Shown: in pieces, positions 6,911 to 21,935 of the stretch
How the letters are laid out: each line of letters starts with the position of its first letter
Numbering within the stretch: the first letter of the stretch is position 1
Source: an uncultured Gammaproteobacteria bacterium
GTDB taxonomy: Bacteria > Patescibacteriota > Microgenomatia > Levybacterales > UBA12049
Length of the DNA: 59,305 nucleotides
Assembly (NCBI GenBank): GCA_964565795.1
Contig: CAZMGC010000001.1
Coordinates: forward strand, 8,855 to 68,159
Reading direction: 5' to 3'
Made by a program: the position numbers and the translations under genes
The notes under the pieces: generated by a model
Told to the model about the DNA's origin: nothing
Seen by the model: only the letters and a program-made list of their open reading frames with translations
Database searches by the model: none

Positions 6911-7480
6911 ATGATTTTATCTGACGGGGATATAAAAAAAGCCCTCAAAGAGAAGAGAATCGAAATAACCCCAACTCCAGATTTTTCAACACAACTTGGA
7001 AGCTGTTCAGTTGATCTTCGCCTAGGAGATACATTTAGAGTTTTTGAACATTCTAAATACAGTTTTATAGATCCTTCTAAAAAAGATTTTTCTAATGAAA
7101 TTACCCGCGAAATAAAAATTAAAAAAGGAGATGTTTTTATGATGCAGCCTGGAGATTTCGTCCTGGCAGTGACGCTTGAAAAAGTAAAAATCCCGCCTGA
7201 TCTTATGGGGCGTCTTGAAGGTCGATCTTCGCTTGGACGTCTAGGAATTGTAGTGCATTCTACAGCTTCAATTTTTGATCCTGGGTGGGATGGAAAACCA
7301 GTTCTTGAGCTGGGAAATCTGGGGAGAATGGCTGTGTCTTTAACTGTCGGGATGAGAATTTGTGCTATGACTTTTGAAGAACTATCAAGTCCTGCAGAAA
7401 CTCCATACACTTCTAAAAAATTCGCAAAATATAAATTTCAAGACACCCCAATTGAAAGCCGAATTCACGAAGAAAAATGA
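6911..7480 (+). CDS. dcd: dCTP deaminase
   Basis: 189 aa. MILSDGDIKKAL...SVDLRLG...GRLEGRSSLGRLGIVVH...DPGW.G...LEL.N is the typical Dcd/dUTPase-fold signature. Confidence 0.9.
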   Translation: MILSDGDIKKALKEKRIEITPTPDFSTQLGSCSVDLRLGDTFRVFEHSKYSFIDPSKKDFSNEITREIKIKKGDVFMMQPGDFVLAVTLEKVKIPPDLMGRLEGRSSLGRLGIVVHSTASIFDPGWDGKPVLELGNLGRMAVSLTVGMRICAMTFEELSSPAETPYTSKKFAKYKFQDTPIESRIHEEK

Positions 7481-8157
7481 AATATCATATAGAGTTTGAT
7501 CTGGAATTAAAGAAGAATCCGTATAAAGGGTTATATATTGCCTTAGAGGGAACTGAAGCTTCTGGAAAAACGACTCAAGCTGAAAAATTAAAAGAATATT
7601 TTGAATCAAAGGGAAAACGGGTGGTAACCACAAGAGAACCAAGAAAAGAAGGAATAATTGGAGATATAGTTCATAAGGTTCTTAAGGGTGAACTCCAGAT
7701 GGATTCTTCGGCTTTTCAATATCTTTTTTCTACCGATAGAGTTCTTAATCACAGAGAAGTAGTTGTGCCAGCTTTAGAATTAGGCAGGGTTGTTATTTCA
7801 GACAGGAGTTTTTGGTCTGCAATTGTTTATGGGGTTTTGGATAAAACGGAAGGGGAATATAAAAAAGAAGCAATAGATCAGCTTTTGGTTGCGCAATCCA
7901 TATTATCTTTTTATCATCAATTTATAGTTCCCGATTACACCTTTTTCTTAAAAATTCCTCTTAATCTTTCCATCGAGAGATTACAAAATGAAAGAAAACA
8001 GGCGAAAGAGATTTATGAAGATGAAGGAAAAATTGAAAAAATTATTAAGGGTTATGAATTTGTATTTAAAAATTTTGAAAATGAAATTATAACCATTGAT
8101 GGATCAGCGGATATTGATACTGTTTCTAAGGAAATTATTGGTAAAATTAAACTATGA
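7477..8157 (+). CDS. tmk: Thymidylate (dTMP) kinase
   Basis: P-loop LYIALEGTEASGKTTQ and TREP..G motif. ATGA overlap with the dcd stop. Confidence 0.9.
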   Translation: MKYHIEFDLELKKNPYKGLYIALEGTEASGKTTQAEKLKEYFESKGKRVVTTREPRKEGIIGDIVHKVLKGELQMDSSAFQYLFSTDRVLNHREVVVPALELGRVVISDRSFWSAIVYGVLDKTEGEYKKEAIDQLLVAQSILSFYHQFIVPDYTFFLKIPLNLSIERLQNERKQAKEIYEDEGKIEKIIKGYEFVFKNFENEIITIDGSADIDTVSKEIIGKIKL

Positions 8158-8221
8158 ACATAAATCCAAACCCTCCTTCGCATAAAGCTTCGGAAGGGCA
8201 AGAGAATTATTAAATATTAAT

Positions 8222-8761
8222 ATGATATTAAATCCGAAAATATTATTAGAGCTAGTTAAAAAAGAAAAGTTGGTTGAAAACTTATCTGAAAGAGAACTCA
8301 CAAATCCAGAGGGAACAGGGTTTGACTTGCGATTAGGAGAGGTTTTTAAGATTTCTGGGAAAGCTTTTTTAGGAGAAACTCACAGACAGACTCCAGATAT
8401 AACTTCAGTTAAAGTTTATGACCCAAAAAAACCCAGTAGTATAAAAATAAAACCCGGGGATTTTTTTTTAGTAAAAACAATTGAGAAAATAAATTTGCCT
8501 CTTAATTTATCTGCAGTAATTTTACCTCGCACCACAACATTCCGTTCGGGTTTGTTTATCCGCACCGGACCCATTCAGCCAGGTTACAGTGGTGAGTTGA
8601 CGTTTGGTTTGAAGAACGAGGGTCCTATCACAGTCGAAATCGAAATGGGAGCGCGTTTTACGCATCTTATATTCCACGAAATAAAAGGAGAGGGGTCTAA
8701 ATATAGAGGCCAATGGCAAGGCGGCCGCGTTAGTGCCACAAAAAGAGAAAAACAGGTATGA
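8222..8761 (+). CDS. Second dCTP deaminase/dUTPase-superfamily protein (candidate dUTP-to-dUMP step)
   Basis: 179 aa. GFDLRLGEVF...PGDFFLV.T.E.I.LP..L.A...PR.T..R.GL......I.PGY.G.L.F.L.N matches the dUTPase/Dcd fold pattern. Diverged from the first copy. Confidence 0.75.
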   Translation: MILNPKILLELVKKEKLVENLSERELTNPEGTGFDLRLGEVFKISGKAFLGETHRQTPDITSVKVYDPKKPSSIKIKPGDFFLVKTIEKINLPLNLSAVILPRTTTFRSGLFIRTGPIQPGYSGELTFGLKNEGPITVEIEMGARFTHLIFHEIKGEGSKYRGQWQGGRVSATKREKQV

Positions 8762-8792
8762 AATACTACCAATGTCAAATACTACAAATATT
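8762..8792 (+). repeat. Left repeat arm (two copies of AATACTAC[C/A]AAT); contains the ATG of the four-helix-bundle gene
   Basis: 29/31 nt identical to 19370-19400. Begins 1 nt after the stop codon of ORF 8222..8761. Confidence 0.8.
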
Positions 8793-9143
8793 CCAATAAG
8801 GAAATACGATATTCATGAGCGAATTTATAAGTTTGTGGTGGAAGTAATAAAATTAGTAAATTCTCTTCCCAAAACAGAATCGAATATCGTAATAATAAGA
8901 CAAATTTTAAGATCTGTGACCTCGATGGGTGCAAACGATCAAGAAGCGGACGGAACATTAACGAAAAAAGATTTTTTACATACATACACGATTGTTCGTA
9001 AAGAAGGAAAAGAAACAAATTTTTGGCTTTCGCTAATTTCTGACACAAACCTAACAATAAAAATAAGGTCAGACAAGCTTCTATCGGAGGGAAAAGAAAT
9101 TGTTTTGATTCTTAGCTCGATAATAAATAAAACGAGAAAATGA
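8772..9143 (+). CDS. Four-helix-bundle protein (23S rRNA intervening-sequence protein / Avd-like family)
   Basis: IHERIYKFVVEVIKLVNSLPK...IIRQILRSVTSMGANDQEADGTLTKKDFLHTYTIVRKEGKETNFWLSLI matches the conserved pattern of this family (LP...Q..RS.TS.GAN..EA......DF.....I..KE..ET..WL). I prefer the ATG at 8772 over the track start 8733, which overlaps the preceding gene by 29 nt. Confidence 0.8.
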   Translation: MSNTTNIPIRKYDIHERIYKFVVEVIKLVNSLPKTESNIVIIRQILRSVTSMGANDQEADGTLTKKDFLHTYTIVRKEGKETNFWLSLISDTNLTIKIRSDKLLSEGKEIVLILSSIINKTRK

Positions 9144-9161
9144 CCTATTGAAATATTAAGA

Positions 9162-9195
9162 AATATTGGTAGTATTGGTATGTATTTGTAGTATT
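9162..9195 (+). repeat. Right repeat arm (inverted copies of the 12-mers)
   Basis: Its reverse complement AATACTACAAATacataccAATACTACCAATATT matches the left arm. It ends 5 nt before the thyA ATG. Confidence 0.8.
9166..9194 (+). promoter_or_regulatory. Putative thyA promoter TTGGTA-17-TAGTAT embedded in the right repeat arm, 5 nt before the ATG
   Basis: TTGGTA at 9166-9171, TAGTAT at 9189-9194, ATG at 9200. Confidence 0.4.
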
Positions 9196-9199
9196 AATT

Positions 9200-10192
9200 A
9201 TGGCAGGAAAGAGACACCCCGAATATCAGTACCTCGAAATTGGAAAAGAAATTCTAAAAGATGGAATTAAGCAAACAGACCGCGGAACTGGAGTAGTCAC
9301 ATATAGTTTGTTTGGTCGAAAATCTGAATATGATTTATCAGAGAGTTTTCCGCTTCTTACAACTAAAAGAGTTTACTGGAATGGAGTAATTCAGGAGCTT
9401 TACTGGTTTTTCTCAGGTCAAACCAACATCAAATATTTAGTCGATCATAATACCCATATTTGGGATGATTATCCTTATAAAATTTTTAAAGAAAAAAATC
9501 CTAAGTCGAAAATGACTAAGGATGAATTTATAGAAAAAATTAAAACTGATGCAAAATTTGCAAAACTTCATGGTGAACTTCCGAGAATTTATGGAGAAAT
9601 GTGGAGAAAATGGCCGACTAGGAAAAAAGGAAAGACCGTAGATCAACTTCAGTGGATAGTGGACGAGGTAAAAGCTGATCCAAATGCACATAACTTGATA
9701 GTAAATTCCTGGAATCCTGAGTATCTATATACAATGGCGGATAAGGAAGATGCCTCCAGATTTCCAATTTGCCATAACATGTATCAGGTAAGTAACAGAA
9801 ATGGAAAACTCGATCTTATTCTTTATCAAAGAAGCTGTGATTATTTCCTGGGTGTTCCATTTAATATAGCTAGCTATTCACTTCTTTGTATAGTGCTCGC
9901 AAAGGTTATGGGGCTTAAGCCCGGTAAATTTATTCATATGTACGGAGATATTCATATTTATGAAAATCATATAGAGCAAGTAAAAGAAGAGATAAAAAGA
10001 AAACCAAAGCCATTTCCAAAAGTAAAGATAAATGGGAAAATTTCTAAATTAAATGATTTTAAGCCTGAAATGGTAGAGTTAGTCGGATACGAGCCTCACC
10101 CTTCAATTAAAGCCGAGCTCACTGTCGCCGGCGGTTTTTATCAGGGAAAGTTGAGTAAAGCGAAATCCGCCTCAGGAGGAAAAAAGAAGTAA
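9200..10192 (+). CDS. thyA: Thymidylate synthase (ThyA, long form with small-domain insert and Lys-rich tail)
   Basis: YLEIGKEIL..G....DRGTG..S.FG......L...FPLLTTKRV...G...EL.WF..G.TN, catalytic Cys context RFPICHNMYQ and LYQRSCD..LG.PFNIASY. Confidence 0.9.
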   Translation: MAGKRHPEYQYLEIGKEILKDGIKQTDRGTGVVTYSLFGRKSEYDLSESFPLLTTKRVYWNGVIQELYWFFSGQTNIKYLVDHNTHIWDDYPYKIFKEKNPKSKMTKDEFIEKIKTDAKFAKLHGELPRIYGEMWRKWPTRKKGKTVDQLQWIVDEVKADPNAHNLIVNSWNPEYLYTMADKEDASRFPICHNMYQVSNRNGKLDLILYQRSCDYFLGVPFNIASYSLLCIVLAKVMGLKPGKFIHMYGDIHIYENHIEQVKEEIKRKPKPFPKVKINGKISKLNDFKPEMVELVGYEPHPSIKAELTVAGGFYQGKLSKAKSASGGKKK

Positions 10193-10193
10193 T

Positions 10194-10937
10194 TTATTCT
10201 CCTCCTTTTTTCCAATCGACAGATTTTAGAATTCCTGTAAAAACATCTTCTCCTAAATCTATTTTCATTTCATTAATTTCTTCTTTACTTGGAGTTCTGT
10301 CTACAAAATTTATCTGCCCAATTTCATTTACTATTCCAAGCGGAGTCTGTTCATAAGCTTCTCCCATCTCGAGAACTGATGCTGCTGCGATGCAATCCAC
10401 GATATTTAGAGTTTCCACATGAAGAGGGCGTCCGAAAATATCTGGTTTTCCGATATAGCTTCTAATTGGCTCAAATCCGCACCATGAAAGTCCGACGGCT
10501 GTAACTCCGCGCCTCATAGGTGCCAGTTTGCTATCAGTTACAACCACTCCTAAATTTTTTATCTTATGTTTTTCTCTTAAATATTCCCAGATTTTATTTG
10601 TCGTTTCTGTCAAGTTTTCAGGCCAGAAAATATAGTATCCATTACCATTTGATTCATCAATTCCAGCTGATGCGATTAGAATATTATTTTTAATAGTTAA
10701 AAATACACCGAAGTTTACATATTCCTCAGGTAAATAAAGATCTGCTTCTTTTTTTACCAAGTCCGCTTTATTAATTTTTCCATTGTTTTTGAGAACTCTT
10801 CCCTGGGTAATAGAAATAATTTTCGAGGTAATAACTACGACATCTTTTTCCTGAAGCTTTGGTAATGATTTGTCAAGGATGTCAATAAGTTTATCTGAAA
10901 CTTCTACTTTTTTGGTTTTTATTGGTGTTACTTTCAT
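10194..10937 (-). CDS. CofE-like gamma-glutamyl ligase family protein (F420-0:gamma-glutamyl ligase homologue)
   Basis: 247 aa. VVVITSKIISITQGRV...ASAGIDESNG...VVVTDSKLAPMRRGVTAVGLSW.G...YIGKPDIFGRPL.VE..N..D.IAAA..LEMGE follows the CofE signature. Confidence 0.7.
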   Translation of the reverse strand: MKVTPIKTKKVEVSDKLIDILDKSLPKLQEKDVVVITSKIISITQGRVLKNNGKINKADLVKKEADLYLPEEYVNFGVFLTIKNNILIASAGIDESNGNGYYIFWPENLTETTNKIWEYLREKHKIKNLGVVVTDSKLAPMRRGVTAVGLSWCGFEPIRSYIGKPDIFGRPLHVETLNIVDCIAAASVLEMGEAYEQTPLGIVNEIGQINFVDRTPSKEEINEMKIDLGEDVFTGILKSVDWKKGGE

Positions 10938-11401
10938 GCTGTTTGAATTAAATCAGAAAGACCGTGTTCTTCTAGGAACGCGTGATCAGCTCCGTTTGGA
11001 TTTTCCCCCACAGGCCTTTTTATCCCTGCGATTGTACCATATGAAGGATGAGCAACGGCATCCTCTAATCTTTCTATTACGGCAGTTCCATGATGGGTCG
11101 CGTTATGGGTAAGCCAACTTGCGCCATCTTCAGCGACTAAAACAACTCCTACATGAAATAGTCTAGGGTCTTTATCGGGATTGTCAGTCAGAAAAGCGAT
11201 ATCACCTGTAGCTAATGGTTCATCTGGGGGTACAAATTTTGTGTGTTCTTCATCAACCCAGAGCTCAGCTGAGCGGGGAACATCAAGCATGCTTCTTCCA
11301 AGCGCCTCCACTACAATTCCAGTGTAAAGCTGACAATTCATTCCATCTCCTGGACTTTGTCTTGCAGCTTGTTTGGAAGTATTGCCTGGATGTCGATCCA
11401 A
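10934..11401 (-). CDS. NlpC/P60-like (papain-fold) hydrolase, compositionally atypical; start codon uncertain (TTG in the track)
   Basis: Cys23 (NCQLYTG), GDIAF at 66-70, H83 in FHVGVV and H99 in LTHN give the canonical Cys...GD[IL]xF...HVG...H spacing. The stop overlaps the CofE-like start (ATGA at 10934-10937). The only in-frame ATG is 2 codons before the catalytic Cys, so a non-ATG start or N-terminal decay is implied. Confidence 0.5.
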   Translation of the reverse strand: MDRHPGNTSKQAARQSPGDGMNCQLYTGIVVEALGRSMLDVPRSAELWVDEEHTKFVPPDEPLATGDIAFLTDNPDKDPRLFHVGVVLVAEDGASWLTHNATHHGTAVIERLEDAVAHPSYGTIAGIKRPVGENPNGADHAFLEEHGLSDLIQTA

Positions 11402-11493: not shown

Positions 11494-11997
11494 ATGATTA
11501 GTATAATTGCTGCAATTGATTCTAAAAGGGGACTTGGGAAAAATAATGATCTTTTATTTAGAATCCCTGAAGATTTTAAAAGAATGCAAAAAATCACAAT
11601 GGGTCACCCGATCATTATGGGCCGCCGCACTTTCGAATCAATCGGACGACTTCTTCCAGGACGCACTAACATTATTATAACTCGCGATCCTGAGTCTTAT
11701 AGTCTTCCAGCCTCGCAAGGCCAGGCCTTACGAGGCTACTTGGCTTCATCGCTTGATGAGGCGATTGAGATAGCTAAAGAAAGTCCTGGAGGCGAGGAGA
11801 TAGTTATTTTCGGGGGTGGACAGATTTTTACAGAAGCCATAGAAAAAGATTTAGTAGATGTTTTACATCTGACGGTTGTTGAAGGGGATTTCGGAGCTGA
11901 TACCTTTTTCCCAGATTATTCAAAATATACAGAAACAAACAGGGAAGAAAGAGAAGATGAAAATTATAAGTTTACTTTTCTAGATCTTTTGAGATAA
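11494..11997 (+). CDS. folA: Dihydrofolate reductase
   Basis: MISIIAAIDSKRGLGKNNDLLFRIPEDFKRMQKITMGHPIIMGRRTFESIG..LPGR.NII.TR is classical DHFR. The track start 11470 lies only 3 nt after a TATAAT (11461-11466), so the second ATG at 11494 is preferred. Confidence 0.85.
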   Translation: MISIIAAIDSKRGLGKNNDLLFRIPEDFKRMQKITMGHPIIMGRRTFESIGRLLPGRTNIIITRDPESYSLPASQGQALRGYLASSLDEAIEIAKESPGGEEIVIFGGGQIFTEAIEKDLVDVLHLTVVEGDFGADTFFPDYSKYTETNREEREDENYKFTFLDLLR

Positions 11998-12870
11998 TAG
12001 GGCACGCTCTGTAGCTGCTTCTAGTAAGGGATAAGAGTCGATAAACTCATGAATGTTTGGTACGATTTGCCTCATAACTCCAGGATTAAATCCAAATAAT
12101 GCTTTATTAAGTGCGCTTTTTACAGCAGATCTAAAATTGGGATCATTTTTTCCAACTTCATCAAGGCTTTTAACAGCGTCTAAGCTTAGAAGAGTTCCTA
12201 ACGATAGTCCTCCTGCGACGTCTGTAAGTTTCGGAACTCCTAAGCCCTGAATTTGTTCCGCTGAATAAAATCTATAAAATCCTTCGACATAATCAGTAAA
12301 ACCCTGAGGAGAGGAAAAATGTCTAATCAAGTTGGTGTCCAGCACTGCCGTTACTGAATCTGGATTCCCATTTCTTGATCCGCGACCTATAATATAGGTG
12401 CCTGTTTCTACTTCATAATATCCATCTCTGTGCTGTTCTGTTGCGCGTGCCATTTTACCTAAAGTGCGTCTAACGTCTTCAAGGGTTTGTGGTTTTCCAA
12501 GGCTTACAGCTGTCGCTGGGCGATCAGGGGTCAGTCTTTGACCTATATCTGAACTGTGAAGAACCAATGGTCTAGTTCTTACATCAGAGGCTATTACAAA
12601 ATTTCCTGGCCCGCTTGCAAAAGTTCCAATCCTATTATTAGGGTTTGAAGGATCCAGCACAAAATCAGCTTTATGTCTAGCTATTTGAACCATATCCGGA
12701 TGCTCGAGTTCCGGGTTTGGGCCTTCTATAAACATAACTCTATAATTAGAAAAAGATGCTAGTGACAATAGGTAGTGTTGTCTTCGGGGGCTTGTAGTTA
12801 CGCCAATAATTACAGAATCGGGTCGTGGTTCAGGTTCTCTGGCAGAATTGCCCAGAGTTTCTCTTGGCAT
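11980..12870 (-). CDS. Maf-like nucleoside-triphosphate pyrophosphatase homologue with insertions and a C-terminal extension, compositionally atypical
   Basis: IIGVTTSPRRQHYL (Maf: ASxSPRRxxLL), VIASDVRT (Maf: GADTVV) and LGKPQTLEDVRRTLGKM....H.....VETGTYII (Maf: GKP.....A...L..lsG..H.V.TG). 23 Arg against 9 Lys by hand count. The 3' end overlaps the folA 3' end by 18 nt. Confidence 0.5.
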   Translation of the reverse strand: MPRETLGNSAREPEPRPDSVIIGVTTSPRRQHYLLSLASFSNYRVMFIEGPNPELEHPDMVQIARHKADFVLDPSNPNNRIGTFASGPGNFVIASDVRTRPLVLHSSDIGQRLTPDRPATAVSLGKPQTLEDVRRTLGKMARATEQHRDGYYEVETGTYIIGRGSRNGNPDSVTAVLDTNLIRHFSSPQGFTDYVEGFYRFYSAEQIQGLGVPKLTDVAGGLSLGTLLSLDAVKSLDEVGKNDPNFRSAVKSALNKALFGFNPGVMRQIVPNIHEFIDSYPLLEAATERALLSQKI

Positions 12871-18820: not shown

Positions 18821-19371
18821 TGGATCCAAATTTAATCGCTAACACACGCGAGCAAATGAGAAAGGCTCTTGATATTCTTCGAGCCGATATTGCAACTATC
18901 AGAACTGGAAAAGCAGCGCCTTCTCTTGTTGAAAATATTTCAGTGACTGTCTATAACGGCACAACAAAACTTAGAGTTATGGAAGTAGCAACTATTAATG
19001 CTTCTGATTCTTCAACTCTAGTTTTAACTCCATTTGATGCTTCGATAATTGAGGATATTAGAAAAGGAATTTTAGAATCCGGAGCTGGTTTAAATCCCGC
19101 AAGCGACGGACAGGTGTTAAGAATTTCTATTCCACCACTTTCAGAGGAAAGAAGACAGGAATTAATTCATCTTATGAATCAGAAATTAGAAAACGGCAGA
19201 GTAATGATTAGGCAATTAAGGCATGAAGCGCTAAGTGATTTAAAAAAAGGCGATTTACCTGAAGATGAAAATGATAGATTAGAAAAAGAAGTGCAAAAAG
19301 CCACTGATGATTTCGTAGCAGAAATTGACGCGCTTGGAAAGAAAAAAGAAGAAGAGCTCCTCCAAATTTAA
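18820..19371 (+). CDS. frr: Ribosome recycling factor
   Basis: L..IRTG.A.PSL...I.V..YG....L...A.I.......L...P.D.......I..AI..S.LGLNP and IP.L.EERR.EL. Confidence 0.95.
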   Translation: MDPNLIANTREQMRKALDILRADIATIRTGKAAPSLVENISVTVYNGTTKLRVMEVATINASDSSTLVLTPFDASIIEDIRKGILESGAGLNPASDGQVLRISIPPLSEERRQELIHLMNQKLENGRVMIRQLRHEALSDLKKGDLPEDENDRLEKEVQKATDDFVAEIDALGKKKEEELLQI

Positions 19372-19444
19372 TACTACCAATCTCAAATTCTACAAATATT
19401 TAAATATTGGATTATTGGTATTTATTGGTAGTATTTGTAGTATT
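19370..19444 (+). repeat. ORF-less copy of the repeat arms seen around the four-helix-bundle gene (miniature element)
   Basis: 19370-19400 is AATACTACCAATctcaAATTCTACAAATATT, 29/31 identical to 8762-8792. It is followed after 2 nt by AATATTGGattATTGGTAtttATTGGTAGTATTTGTAGTATT (19403-19444), related to 9162-9195. The element fills the frr-rseP spacer, starting within the frr stop codon. Confidence 0.75.
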
Positions 19445-20583: not shown

Positions 20584-20976
20584 ATGATAAAGAAGACAGA
20601 AGAGGAGTGGAAGAAAACACTCACTCCCAAACAATACGAAATTCTTAGAGAAAAAGGGACAGAGCCAGCCTTTACTGGAGAATATGTAGATAACCATGAA
20701 AATGGAATGTATACATGTGTGGCATGCGGAAATACTTTGTTTGATTCAGGAACTAAGTTTGATTCGGGTAGTGGTTGGCCAAGTTTTTATGATGTAGCGA
20801 CTAAAGGGAATGTAATTTTAGAAGATGACATGAGCTATGGAATGAAAAGAACTGAAGTAAAATGTGCAAATTGTGGGGGACATTTGGGTCATGTTTTTAC
20901 TGACGGACCAAGGGATAAAACTGGTTTACGATACTGTATTAATTCCTGCGCACTAGATTTTAAGAAGAAAGATTAA
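20584..20976 (+). CDS. msrB: Peptide-methionine (R)-S-oxide reductase
   Basis: [18 protein letters not shown] and [13 protein letters not shown]. Confidence 0.95.
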
Positions 20977-21935
20977 AGACCCATTCCGTTTGAATGGGGA
21001 ATAGTACTGACAGGTTCGATCGAATATCCGAGTCTTCTTGCTTCTTTAGCCCAAGCTTTAAATGCTGCTCGATCAACTGGTGTGAAATGGAAGATTGCAC
21101 GATCTCCTGGTTTTAGTGGTAATAAATTGTCAATTGCTTCTTCGACAGATGCTCCATTCCATCCCATTGTGTCTTTGTTCCACATGTCTAATCCCAATTT
21201 TAATTGTTTAGCCGCTGCTACAATTTCTGTGTCTCTTTGTCCTGGTAAAGTTCCTGCTCCATAGGGAGTTCCAAGAGTAAGTTCTTCGATAGGTCTTCTT
21301 AATACTGATCTTAATGCGTTACTCTGTGGTATAACGTGATCAATAACTTCATTTTTTGTAAATGGAGTTAAGTCTGAATGATCATCTGTGTGATTATGCC
21401 ATCTTATTCGTCCTGTAGCTTGACCACGTCTATAATCATCAGGGTATGCCAGTACTGATTGTCCCACAGGATAAACATCCACTGTAGTTCCTAAGTCTTC
21501 AAACATGGAAAAAGCTGCTGCGACTTCTGCCTGATCCCATCCATCATCCCATCTTGCGCGAACGACTTTTCTTTTTGTTCTTTCCTTGTAAATAATTGTT
21601 CCAGGTCCAAACGAAGTTACTCCTCCATTTTCTTCTGCTGTTGATCTTACATCAGGTAATCGAGAAGGATGAGTCCGTTCAAGTCTAGTAAGTTTTCTTC
21701 TAACATCAGAAAGTCTTTGATCTGCTGTAAGTGATTCTTGATCTACAATTGGTTCTCTTTGTGCACCTAGTGCTGTGTGGGGAAGCCATAAATTATGTGC
21801 AACAGCAACTGCAGCTACAGCCGCTCCTGTTACAGCACCTCTTCTTAAAAGTGTTCTTCTACTTAACTGTGCGGATTGACCCGCTGATTGCTCAGCTGAT
21901 ACTGGTCCCGGTTGTGGTGTTTCGTGTCCTGCCAT
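20973..21935 (-). CDS. Polysaccharide deacetylase (NodB/CE4-like) with twin-arginine-type signal peptide, compositionally atypical
   Basis: [23 protein letters not shown] resembles a Tat signal. NodB-like motifs RWDDGW (TFDDG), [11 protein letters not shown] and [16 protein letters not shown] (H[ST]xxH). 28 Arg against 11 Lys by hand count. Overlaps the msrB stop by 4 nt. Confidence 0.6.

Follow-up and report, generated by a model that had tools for sequence, protein, structure and literature searches.

The cassette at the dcd2-thyA junction

The subject of this analysis is a short cassette, bounded by inverted repeats and carrying a single gene, at positions 8762-9195 of a 59,305-nt stretch of contig CAZMGC010000001.1. 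We refer to the whole stretch as the window; all window coordinates are positions in it, and L-numbers are locus labels within this analysis. The cassette lies between a dcd-like gene and thyA, and its gene encodes a protein of the 23S rRNA intervening-sequence (IVS) type. The features discussed below are:

8222-8761, + strand: upstream host gene dcd2, a dcd-like paralogue (PF22769 DCD, E = 7.9e-25), with its stop codon at 8759-8761
8762-8792, + strand: 5' ('type I') arm, AATACTACCAAT-gtca-AATACTACAAATATT
8772-9143 including the stop codon, + strand: gene for a 123-aa four-helix-bundle protein (PF05635 / TIGR02436, '23S rRNA IVS protein', Avd-like)
8790-8798, + strand: left half of an inner inverted repeat, ATTCCAATA, the left edge of the ~350-nt segment that is missing from gene-less copies in the filled/empty alignment
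9146-9154, + strand: right half of that repeat, TATTGAAAT, which bounds the gene-sized indel on the right
9162-9195, + strand: 3' ('type II') arm, AATATTGGTAGTATT-ggtatgt-ATTTGTAGTATT
9200-10192, + strand: downstream host gene thyA (PF00303, E = 4.3e-92)
19370-19444, + strand: second, gene-less copy, with left arm AATACTACCAAT-ctca-AATTCTACAAATATT, a 26-nt loop and right arm ...ATTGGTAGTATTTGTAGTATT

When the sequence was re-read, the arms, 12-mers and gene positions given by the original prediction were all as described. The left arm begins at the base that follows the dcd2 stop codon, the ATG of the enclosed gene (8772-8774) lies within that arm, and the right arm includes the reverse complements of both 12-mers. 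The cassette had also been said to end 5 nt before the thyA ATG, which holds only when counting from 9195 to 9200; the actual gap is 4 nt (AATT). Between them, the arm and the inner repeat encode codons 1-9 of the enclosed gene (MSNTTNIPI).

Each arm is an array built on a 9-nt unit, AATACTAC[C/A], in which the units are spaced either at a 9-nt phase or by the recurrent spacers gtca, gccaca, acatacc and aaatacc. The 5' arm is made up of the unit AATACTACC, AAT-gtca, the unit AATACTACA and AATATT, and this type I order (C, A, gtca, A) is also found at the 5' ends of the cassettes in L041, L115, L121, L131 and L213-L245. The 3' arm ATTGGTAGTATTggtatgtATTTGTAGTATT was found identical in L007, L093, L214 and other loci.

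Allowing at most one mismatch, the 12-mer AATACTACMAAT occurs 11 times in the window, compared with 1.31 +/- 1.06 expected, and none of 100 shuffles reached 11. Eight of these 11 matches fall in two clusters, the cassette and the site at 19370-19444, the latter being made up of four of the matches that lie outside the cassette. This second site is situated between frr and rseP; its left end runs into the frr stop codon (19369-19371), and 23 nt separate its right end from the rseP-like ATG (19468). Its left arm is as at 8762 and its right arm is of the same kind, with no gene in between. When filled and empty copies are aligned, the arms and the inner palindrome (ATTCCAATA...TATTGAAAT) are common to both, and the gene body of ~350 nt is an exact indel; the loops of empty copies contain AT[AT]TCAAT...ATTGAAAT. 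By analogy, the gene-less copies stand to the full copies as miniature inverted-repeat transposable elements (MITEs) stand to their parent elements. No further copies, and no other cassette-like inverted repeats, were found in the window. A chance repeat is ruled out by the excess of 12-mers together with the genome-wide recurrence and the inverted pairing described below. A search of the whole window against Rfam at gathering thresholds returned no family, no tRNA and no rRNA. A known RNA family was likewise set aside as an explanation, as the only hit over the two sites at permissive thresholds was a chance miRNA match (E = 0.62).

Upstream of the cassette (6911-8761), two dCTP-deaminase-like paralogues (6911-7480 and 8222-8761) flank a thymidylate kinase gene. 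Together with thyA and folA these genes form a single operon, whose order is kept in relatives. No recognisable Shine-Dalgarno sequence precedes the starts of the genes in this region (e.g., 6911, 8222, 9200 and 19468).

The enclosed protein

The assignment of the enclosed gene to the 23S-IVS-type four-helix bundles was borne out. The 123-aa open reading frame (ORF) scored 56.8 bits against PF05635 (cut-off 33.8) and 77 bits against TIGR02436 (cut-off 24), and a profile built from 27 homologues matched PDB entry 2RLD, which holds five chains, with E = 3e-20 over profile positions 15-125 of 126. The protein is basic (pI 9.65). All 27 homologues keep the N-terminus MSNTTN because the start codon sits in the arm sequence AAATGTCAAAT.

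Comparison with relatives gave ratios of nonsynonymous to synonymous divergence (dN/dS) of 0.08-0.15, indicating purifying selection on a gene that is not decaying. Its dN (0.17-0.25) does not exceed the values for thyA or tmk, and its dS of 1.4-2.3 is under nearly all neighbour comparisons, most of which are saturated. The lower dS fits a common ancestry of the cassettes that is more recent than that of the host genes.

Candidate phyla radiation (CPR) genomes are rich in diversity-generating retroelements (DGRs). PF05635 includes the Avd proteins of DGRs and is cited in that context (PMC10053308), and the cassette might be read as what is left of a DGR, with Avd as its protein and with the reverse transcriptase and template/variable repeats either lost or located elsewhere. 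Neither the nine neighbouring genes nor those called in 20 related loci include a reverse transcriptase. The repeats form inverted arrays of 9-nt units rather than a template/variable pair, and the same architecture is seen in 84 cassettes. Furthermore, the protein had no PADLOC match (0 families of the defence models at E <= 0.01). We consider a DGR origin of this kind extremely improbable.

Pairing of the arms

Each 12-mer has a perfect partner (8762-8773 with 9165-9176, and 8778-8790 with 9183-9195), but the two pairings cross, so that a single hairpin can contain only one of them. The nested pairing has two mismatches (one C.U, one A.G) and an internal loop of 4 x 7. The arm duplex has a predicted energy of -22.3 kcal/mol (z = -3.4) at 8762-9195 and of -16.4 kcal/mol (z = -2.3) at 19370-19444, and the hairpin of the empty copy folds with -14 to -16 kcal/mol. 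The terminal inverted repeats are predicted to pair into a stem that has the gene-sized indel at its apex, which is the arrangement of an IVS.

Previous work on the Coxiella 23S IVS described a terminal stem, tandem heptamers (GACAGAT, 2-3 copies) just upstream of the S23p start, and cleavage by RNase III within the stem (PMC4990558). By analogy with the 23S IVSs, it is plausible that pairing of the cassette arms creates an RNase III site (PMC4990558). The arms would pair in the transcript into an imperfect stem, and a cut as in rRNA IVSs would separate the cistrons without harming them.

Relatives in public genomes

A scan of public genomes (one genome per species, two units required within 30 nt) found the arm pattern in at least 120 stretches, with 2-14 kb of sequence available around each copy. 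The matches listed are mostly from Levy-, Gottesman- and Roizmanbacteria and other Patescibacteria (Microgenomates-type CPR). Some come from MAGs (metagenome-assembled genomes) labelled 'uncultured Gammaproteobacteria'. Other hosts are labelled Dehalococcoidales/Chloroflexota and have a GC content of 0.54-0.59, and two are Thermoplasmata archaea. Among the loci with a Dehalococcoidales or Chloroflexota label, L031, L074, L106, L238 and L245 belong to GC-rich hosts in which Shine-Dalgarno sequences are used.

Convergent inverted 12-mers within 700 nt were present in 42 of the 120 genome stretches listed, compared with 2 of 72 stretches in a viral-contig background. A low-complexity coding repeat (N-T-T-N) accounts for some of the matches (L011, L026, L034 and giant-virus MAGs), but it fails to account for the inverted intergenic pairs, given these counts. 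Among the matches listed, the spacing between the arms is bimodal (3-112 nt vs 375-436 nt):

Spacing 3-112 nt: 32 copies, no gene
Spacing 375-436 nt: 9 copies, a PF05635-like ORF in 9/9
Spacing 488 nt: 1 copy, with a 152-aa lipoprotein-like ORF (L031, Dehalococcoidales)
Spacing 157 and 194 nt: 2 copies, intermediate
Spacing 714 and 1339 nt: 2 copies, probably chance

Gene-less copies, which span 60-190 nt, are several times commoner than full copies among the matches listed. The association with the gene was also evident when flanks were scored for inverted repeats. The median score was ~17 for 15 PF05635-like ORFs, compared with 7 for 804 other ORFs of 90-200 aa in the same loci (Mann-Whitney p = 7e-9; 95th percentile of the controls, 10). 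The original prediction had named, as the outcome that would speak against it, a motif that is common in intergenic DNA and has no association with these genes. The motif is indeed common in intergenic DNA, because of the gene-less copies, whereas its association with the genes is strong.

Several copies depart from the usual form. In L031 (1436-1966; a MAG labelled Dehalococcoidales), the 152-aa lipoprotein-like ORF is bracketed by a single AATACTACC unit and a complete 3' arm; the same junction, from an acyl-CoA dehydratase-like gene to its activase, holds a PF05635 cassette in L238 and L245, and the lipoprotein-like ORF may represent a cargo replacement. Archaeal MAGs (L086:1565-1948 and 7317-7413, on the Thermoplasmata chromosome CP070629.1, as well as L025 and L110) contain arrays of the 9-mer AATACTACA in inverted pairs around a GC-rich inner stem, CCACCCCCC...GGGGTGGGGGG, and no PF05635 gene was detected in these three loci. 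Nested or tandem copies were also seen, with a gene-less hairpin directly after the stop codon of the cassette gene in the 3' flank of L241/L242 and an extra 5' arm ~90 nt upstream of the cassette in the 5' flank of L229/L230.

Other hairpin families were encountered as well. At L003:4220-4880, an rpiB-like gene (assigned by eye from its N-terminus) is flanked by gene-less hairpin arrays of other unit families, and at L103:5400-6020 a small membrane-protein gene is likewise flanked; the units at these two loci are AGTATTTAGTAT... and GAAAATT.... It follows from these arrays that hairpins of several families fill intergenic spacers in Patescibacteria.

Placement of the cassettes in host operons

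A metagenome scan with the alignment of 27 homologues, which is independent of the DNA motif, yielded 342 relatives of the protein, and 80 loci were kept. Units of AATACTAC were present on both sides of the gene in 46 of the 71 loci with complete flanks and on at least one side in 57 of the 71. The most divergent relatives (57-62% identity) have drifting units such as AAATAAAC, AATTTCAAAT and AATGTCAAATGACAAAT.

The two arms are not equivalent. The 5' arms hold 2-4 copies of the 9-nt unit, usually in the order C-unit, A-unit, gtca, A-unit, with the start codon within AAATGTCAAAT; the usual 3' arm, in which these units are inverted, is ATTGGTAGTATT-ggtatgt-ATT[T/G]GTAGTATT. Placement relative to the host genes is equally regular. 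Over more than 30 arrays, the 5' arm starts between 1 nt before and 12 nt after the stop codon of an upstream gene on the same strand. In CPR hosts, the 3' arm stops 0-10 nt short of the following ATG and there is no Shine-Dalgarno sequence; in GC-rich hosts, the arm is followed by GGAGG and then the ATG. The flanking genes of 81 loci represent at least 70 clusters and almost all share the strand of the cassette; those that recur are dcd (12), thyA (8), mreB (8), tmk (5) and cysS (4). Because the elements take up whole intergenic spacers and abut start codons, they probably shape the expression of the operon. Given its orientation, the cassette gene would most simply be expressed by read-through from the host operon. 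The ATG of the cassette gene lies 10-35 nt past the stop codon upstream, and that of the following gene just beyond the 3' arm, an arrangement that would let translation continue along the operon.

Related genomes differ in which junction of the operon is occupied:

Window and L041: cassette between dcd2 and thyA
L115 and L121 (protein 78% identical): cassette between dcd1 and tmk
L101: cassette upstream of tmk, and a different type of cassette between thyA and folA
L093: no gene; an empty hairpin at the dcd2-thyA junction, with the same right arm and a near-identical left arm
L131 (protein 73% identical): cassette upstream of mreB

The dcd2-thyA junction is therefore filled in the window and L041 and empty in L093, so that both states of a MITE-type element are found at one site. 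Cassettes with the same arms also occur in GC-rich contexts, beside genes shared with Dehalococcoidales MAGs (L238, L245 and L031). The dcd2-thyA spacer of L121, a Levybacteria-like contig, contains a different, GC-rich palindromic insert of ~120 nt (L121:5784-5915; ctgtcattgcgagg...cccgcaatgacgaag). Since this insert differs from the cassette, the junction seems to gather several kinds of small palindromic element.

The elements occupy the entire spacer, starting at the stop codon and stopping 0-10 nt short of the following ATG, they share the orientation of their neighbours, and they recur in the same operons (the counts given above). This would also suit a role as operon 'punctuation' for the host. 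They would then be intercistronic RNA stems that the host has domesticated and retains for its own benefit, as RNase III or other processing sites, as mRNA stabilisers or as spacers for translational coupling; the four-helix-bundle gene would be an occasional passenger or cofactor, and the spread would be old, with present copies inherited vertically. Hairpin arrays of other families around housekeeping genes at other CPR loci (rpiB in L003, the membrane-protein gene in L103) are consistent with such a role, as is the finding that IVS stems are known RNase III substrates (PMC4990558). However, near-identical 9-mers are found in hosts that differ in phylum and GC content, which is hard to explain by vertical descent or convergence, and close relatives of the protein occupy at least 70 neighbourhoods. 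Different junctions of one operon are occupied in related genomes, the dS of the cargo is below nearly all neighbour comparisons, and the stems are weak, with conserved mismatches. We regard punctuation as an unlikely primary account, though one that is compatible with a mobile origin.

The cassettes are strikingly frequent in the nucleotide-metabolism operon (the window, L041, L043, L093, L101, L115 and L121, with further loci L214-L219, L225, L227, L270, L287 and L292). Conceivably, then, the 12-mers could be operators or promoters of this operon, with the protein acting as a transcription factor for dcd/tmk/thyA/folA and the right arm as the thyA promoter. The promoter-like pair that the original prediction had assigned to thyA, TTGGTA (9166-9171), 17 nt, TAGTAT (9189-9194), is present 5 nt upstream of the ATG, and a TTGAAA-16-TAGTAT pair preceded by TG lies at 9148-9175. 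Nevertheless, the claim of a thyA promoter is weak. The predicted pair agrees with the consensus at 8 of 12 positions, and promoter-like matches are not enriched in the region (13, compared with 16.4 +/- 4.8 expected). The left arm would, moreover, fire antisense into dcd2. The same arms are found between frr and rseP in the window, and elsewhere beside mreB, cysS, trxB, acyl-CoA dehydratase activase genes and dozens of unrelated genes, and the excess in the one operon comes partly from sampling close relatives of the query protein. An operator function for this operon is, in our judgement, very unlikely.

Co-variation of arms and protein

Exact arm 12-mers are kept between cassettes whose proteins are only ~50% identical (L048 and L006), which argues that the arm sequence itself is constrained, and not just its pairing. 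Where the proteins are <40% identical (L043, L036, L070, L104, the second cassette of L101 and the frameshifted one of L121), the arms are inverted arrays of quite different short units. Protein identity correlated with the repeated 7-mers shared by the arms (Mantel r = 0.60, reached by 0 of 500 permutations). Some MAGs have spacer variants of their own (for example, CATCA in JAUXTO01 or GCCACA in JACQKO01).

Because the arm units are exact while synonymous sites are saturated, and because they change with the protein subfamily, we infer that they are candidate sequence-specific recognition sites, most economically for the encoded protein, which would be oligomeric.

A second, unrelated subfamily of PF05635 cassettes is found in the thyA-folA spacer of three genomes (L121:6877-7335; L101:4126-4503, - strand; L070:2231-2623, - strand), with the units AAATCCTAAAT, GTAGTATGTAGAATG and AGTATTAAGTA. 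The L121 copy is frameshifted and split into two ORF pieces.

A probably mobile, MITE-like cassette family

The original prediction had offered three alternatives: an IVS-like element within a protein-coding operon, where pairing of the arms would create an RNase III processing site; a small non-autonomous mobile element with terminal and subterminal repeats; and an array of binding sites for the encoded protein. The second is the best supported, since the arms occur with and without the gene, both states are found at an orthologous junction, and the copies lie in at least 70 contexts and several phyla. The first is supported in part, in that an IVS-like hairpin element does lie within a protein-coding operon. 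The third gains indirect support from the co-variation of arm units with protein subfamily, from arms that are kept exact despite saturated synonymous sites, and from the basic pI of the protein. The cassette also fits a MITE in size and structure, being small, having terminal inverted repeats, and carrying the PF05635 gene as its sole ORF, with no transposase. The surveys show that the family has spread over many intergenic sites and several phyla. Taking these findings together, we think it probable that 8762-9195 is one copy of a widespread, apparently mobile family of IVS-type, MITE-like hairpin cassettes in intergenic spacers.

A number of observations weigh against this view. No transposase, integrase or reverse transcriptase was found within 5 kb of the window cassette (Pfam, nine neighbouring genes) or in the neighbourhoods called at related loci, and inspection of 88 element borders gave no consistent target-site duplication. 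None of the element-bearing loci carries rRNA by a crude test with eight rRNA probes, of which each locus matched at most one; the link to rRNA IVSs therefore rests on the protein family and the shared architecture and not on sequence. The stems are AU-rich and of moderate stability (z = -2.2 for the 471-nt region and -1.3 for the empty copy), and the arms contain conserved mismatches instead of being maximally complementary. The co-variation of arms and protein could reflect plain common descent of whole cassettes. Arm similarity within genomes (0.506) is close to that between genomes (0.472), a difference reached by 56 of 1000 permutations, and genome-specific homogenisation of the arms was set aside as a weak trend only. 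Finally, taxon names are MAG labels, some of which are wrong; the label 'uncultured Gammaproteobacteria' of L041 evidently is, because that locus has a Levybacteria-type operon, as in the window.

We also saw no autonomous, transposase-bearing relative in ~290 loci, with the 2-14 kb available around each copy. Recombination breakpoints at the arm were considered and rejected, as the breakpoints of population variants around P0103 and P0037 are ~700 nt distant from it and look related to insertion sequences. At L131-L139, where the cassette lies beside mreB and the cassette protein is identical, the contigs diverge ~700 nt upstream through the presence or absence of an rve_3 integrase gene, and the variable region shows no break at the cassette arm.

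The PF05635 protein may itself be the sequence-specific end-recognition factor, for mobility or maintenance, of hairpin elements that have no transposase. An oligomer would bind the tandem 9-nt units of both arms, with mobilisation in trans for the gene-less hairpins. Classical rRNA IVSs would be those members of the class that landed in rRNA helices, and movement would perhaps proceed via an excised RNA hairpin and a reverse transcriptase, echoing the partnership of Avd and reverse transcriptase in DGRs. We put this joint scheme forward as speculation, with rather low odds of being right as a whole.

Relation to known elements

The closest known system is the IVS of 23S/16S rRNA genes with an S23p / PF05635 ORF (Leptospira, Coxiella, Xanthomonas and Brucella). 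Shared with the cassettes are the family of the cargo protein, the position of the ORF at the apex of a stem of terminal inverted repeats, the coexistence of ORF-bearing and short ORF-less forms, and a sporadic, horizontal-looking distribution. PF05635 ORFs also occur in CPR rRNA insertions (PMC11270868), and the 7-nt tandem repeats of variable copy number in the 5' arm of the Coxiella IVS are a close parallel to the 9-nt arrays of the cassette (PMC4990558). In contrast to these IVSs, the cassette lies outside rRNA, in the gap between the stop codon of one protein-coding gene and the start codon of the next. It occurs in multiple copies (2 in 59 kb and many per MAG), most of them gene-less, and its arms are arrays of a conserved unit shared across phyla. 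The ORF of the Coxiella IVS is decaying, whereas that of the cassette is under purifying selection. As location in rRNA defines an IVS, we class the cassette as an IVS-type element outside rRNA, and not as an IVS.

Correia elements of Neisseria (also called Neisseria miniature insertion sequences, NEMIS, or Correia repeat enclosed elements, CREE) resemble the cassettes in being short, multi-copy and intergenic, with terminal inverted repeats, and presumably in being co-transcribed with their neighbours. Correia hairpins are cut by RNase III, and hexamers resembling promoters can be present at the ends. Correia elements differ in having a TA target duplication, which was not seen at the cassette borders, and in having no protein-coding 'full' version. 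A minority of the cassettes carry a conserved gene, their ends are arrays of tandem units, and the family crosses phyla.

Repetitive extragenic palindromes (REP), the REP hairpins called REPINs and the REP-associated tyrosine transposases (RAYT) offer another parallel, with many intergenic palindromes just after stop codons, a few protein genes flanked by inverted cognate repeats, and a repeat sequence that differs by protein clade. Unlike a RAYT, the protein flanked here is a 123-aa four-helix bundle (PF05635) and not a Y1/HUH transposase; we know of no catalytic activity for a PF05635 protein. Avd of DGRs is a pentamer that binds nucleic acid and a reverse transcriptase. Although it belongs to the same fold family and is likewise small and basic, the cassette gene sits inside an inverted-repeat hairpin, with no reverse transcriptase or template/variable repeats nearby. 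TIGR-Tas (tandem interspaced guide RNA) arrays, which consist of repeats split by variable guide spacers next to a Tas gene, were set aside, since the cassette arms are without variable spacers.

Within a literature search of incomplete coverage, none of six arm strings was found in any relevant paper, all 7 hits being unrelated, and nothing pertinent was found on MITEs in CPR genomes or on stand-alone Avd cassettes. To our knowledge, rRNA IVSs and their conserved ORF have gone unexplained since about 1990, and the PF05635/TIGR02436 family, which is very large, has no known function outside DGRs. The same kind of hairpin with an ORF is now seen in ordinary intergenic spacers, in many copies and with gene-less derivatives; its arms consist of a short unit, conserved from phylum to phylum, that shifts along with the protein subfamily. 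What was a peculiarity of rRNA genes thereby becomes a tractable family of elements, providing cognate pairs of protein and DNA/RNA site for binding assays and natural filled and empty sites as places to look for movement. The family is also relevant to the annotation of CPR and Chloroflexota genomes.

Other features of the window

Three minus-strand ORFs elsewhere in the window (10934-11401, 11980-12870 and 20973-21935) would encode products rich in Ala, Gly, Pro and Arg, which look foreign in a genome of ~35% GC. Pfam gave no match for 10934-11401 and only a sub-threshold match to Maf for 11980-12870. One of the three ORFs opens with a twin-arginine-like signal, and the local GC content is only ~0.40-0.41.

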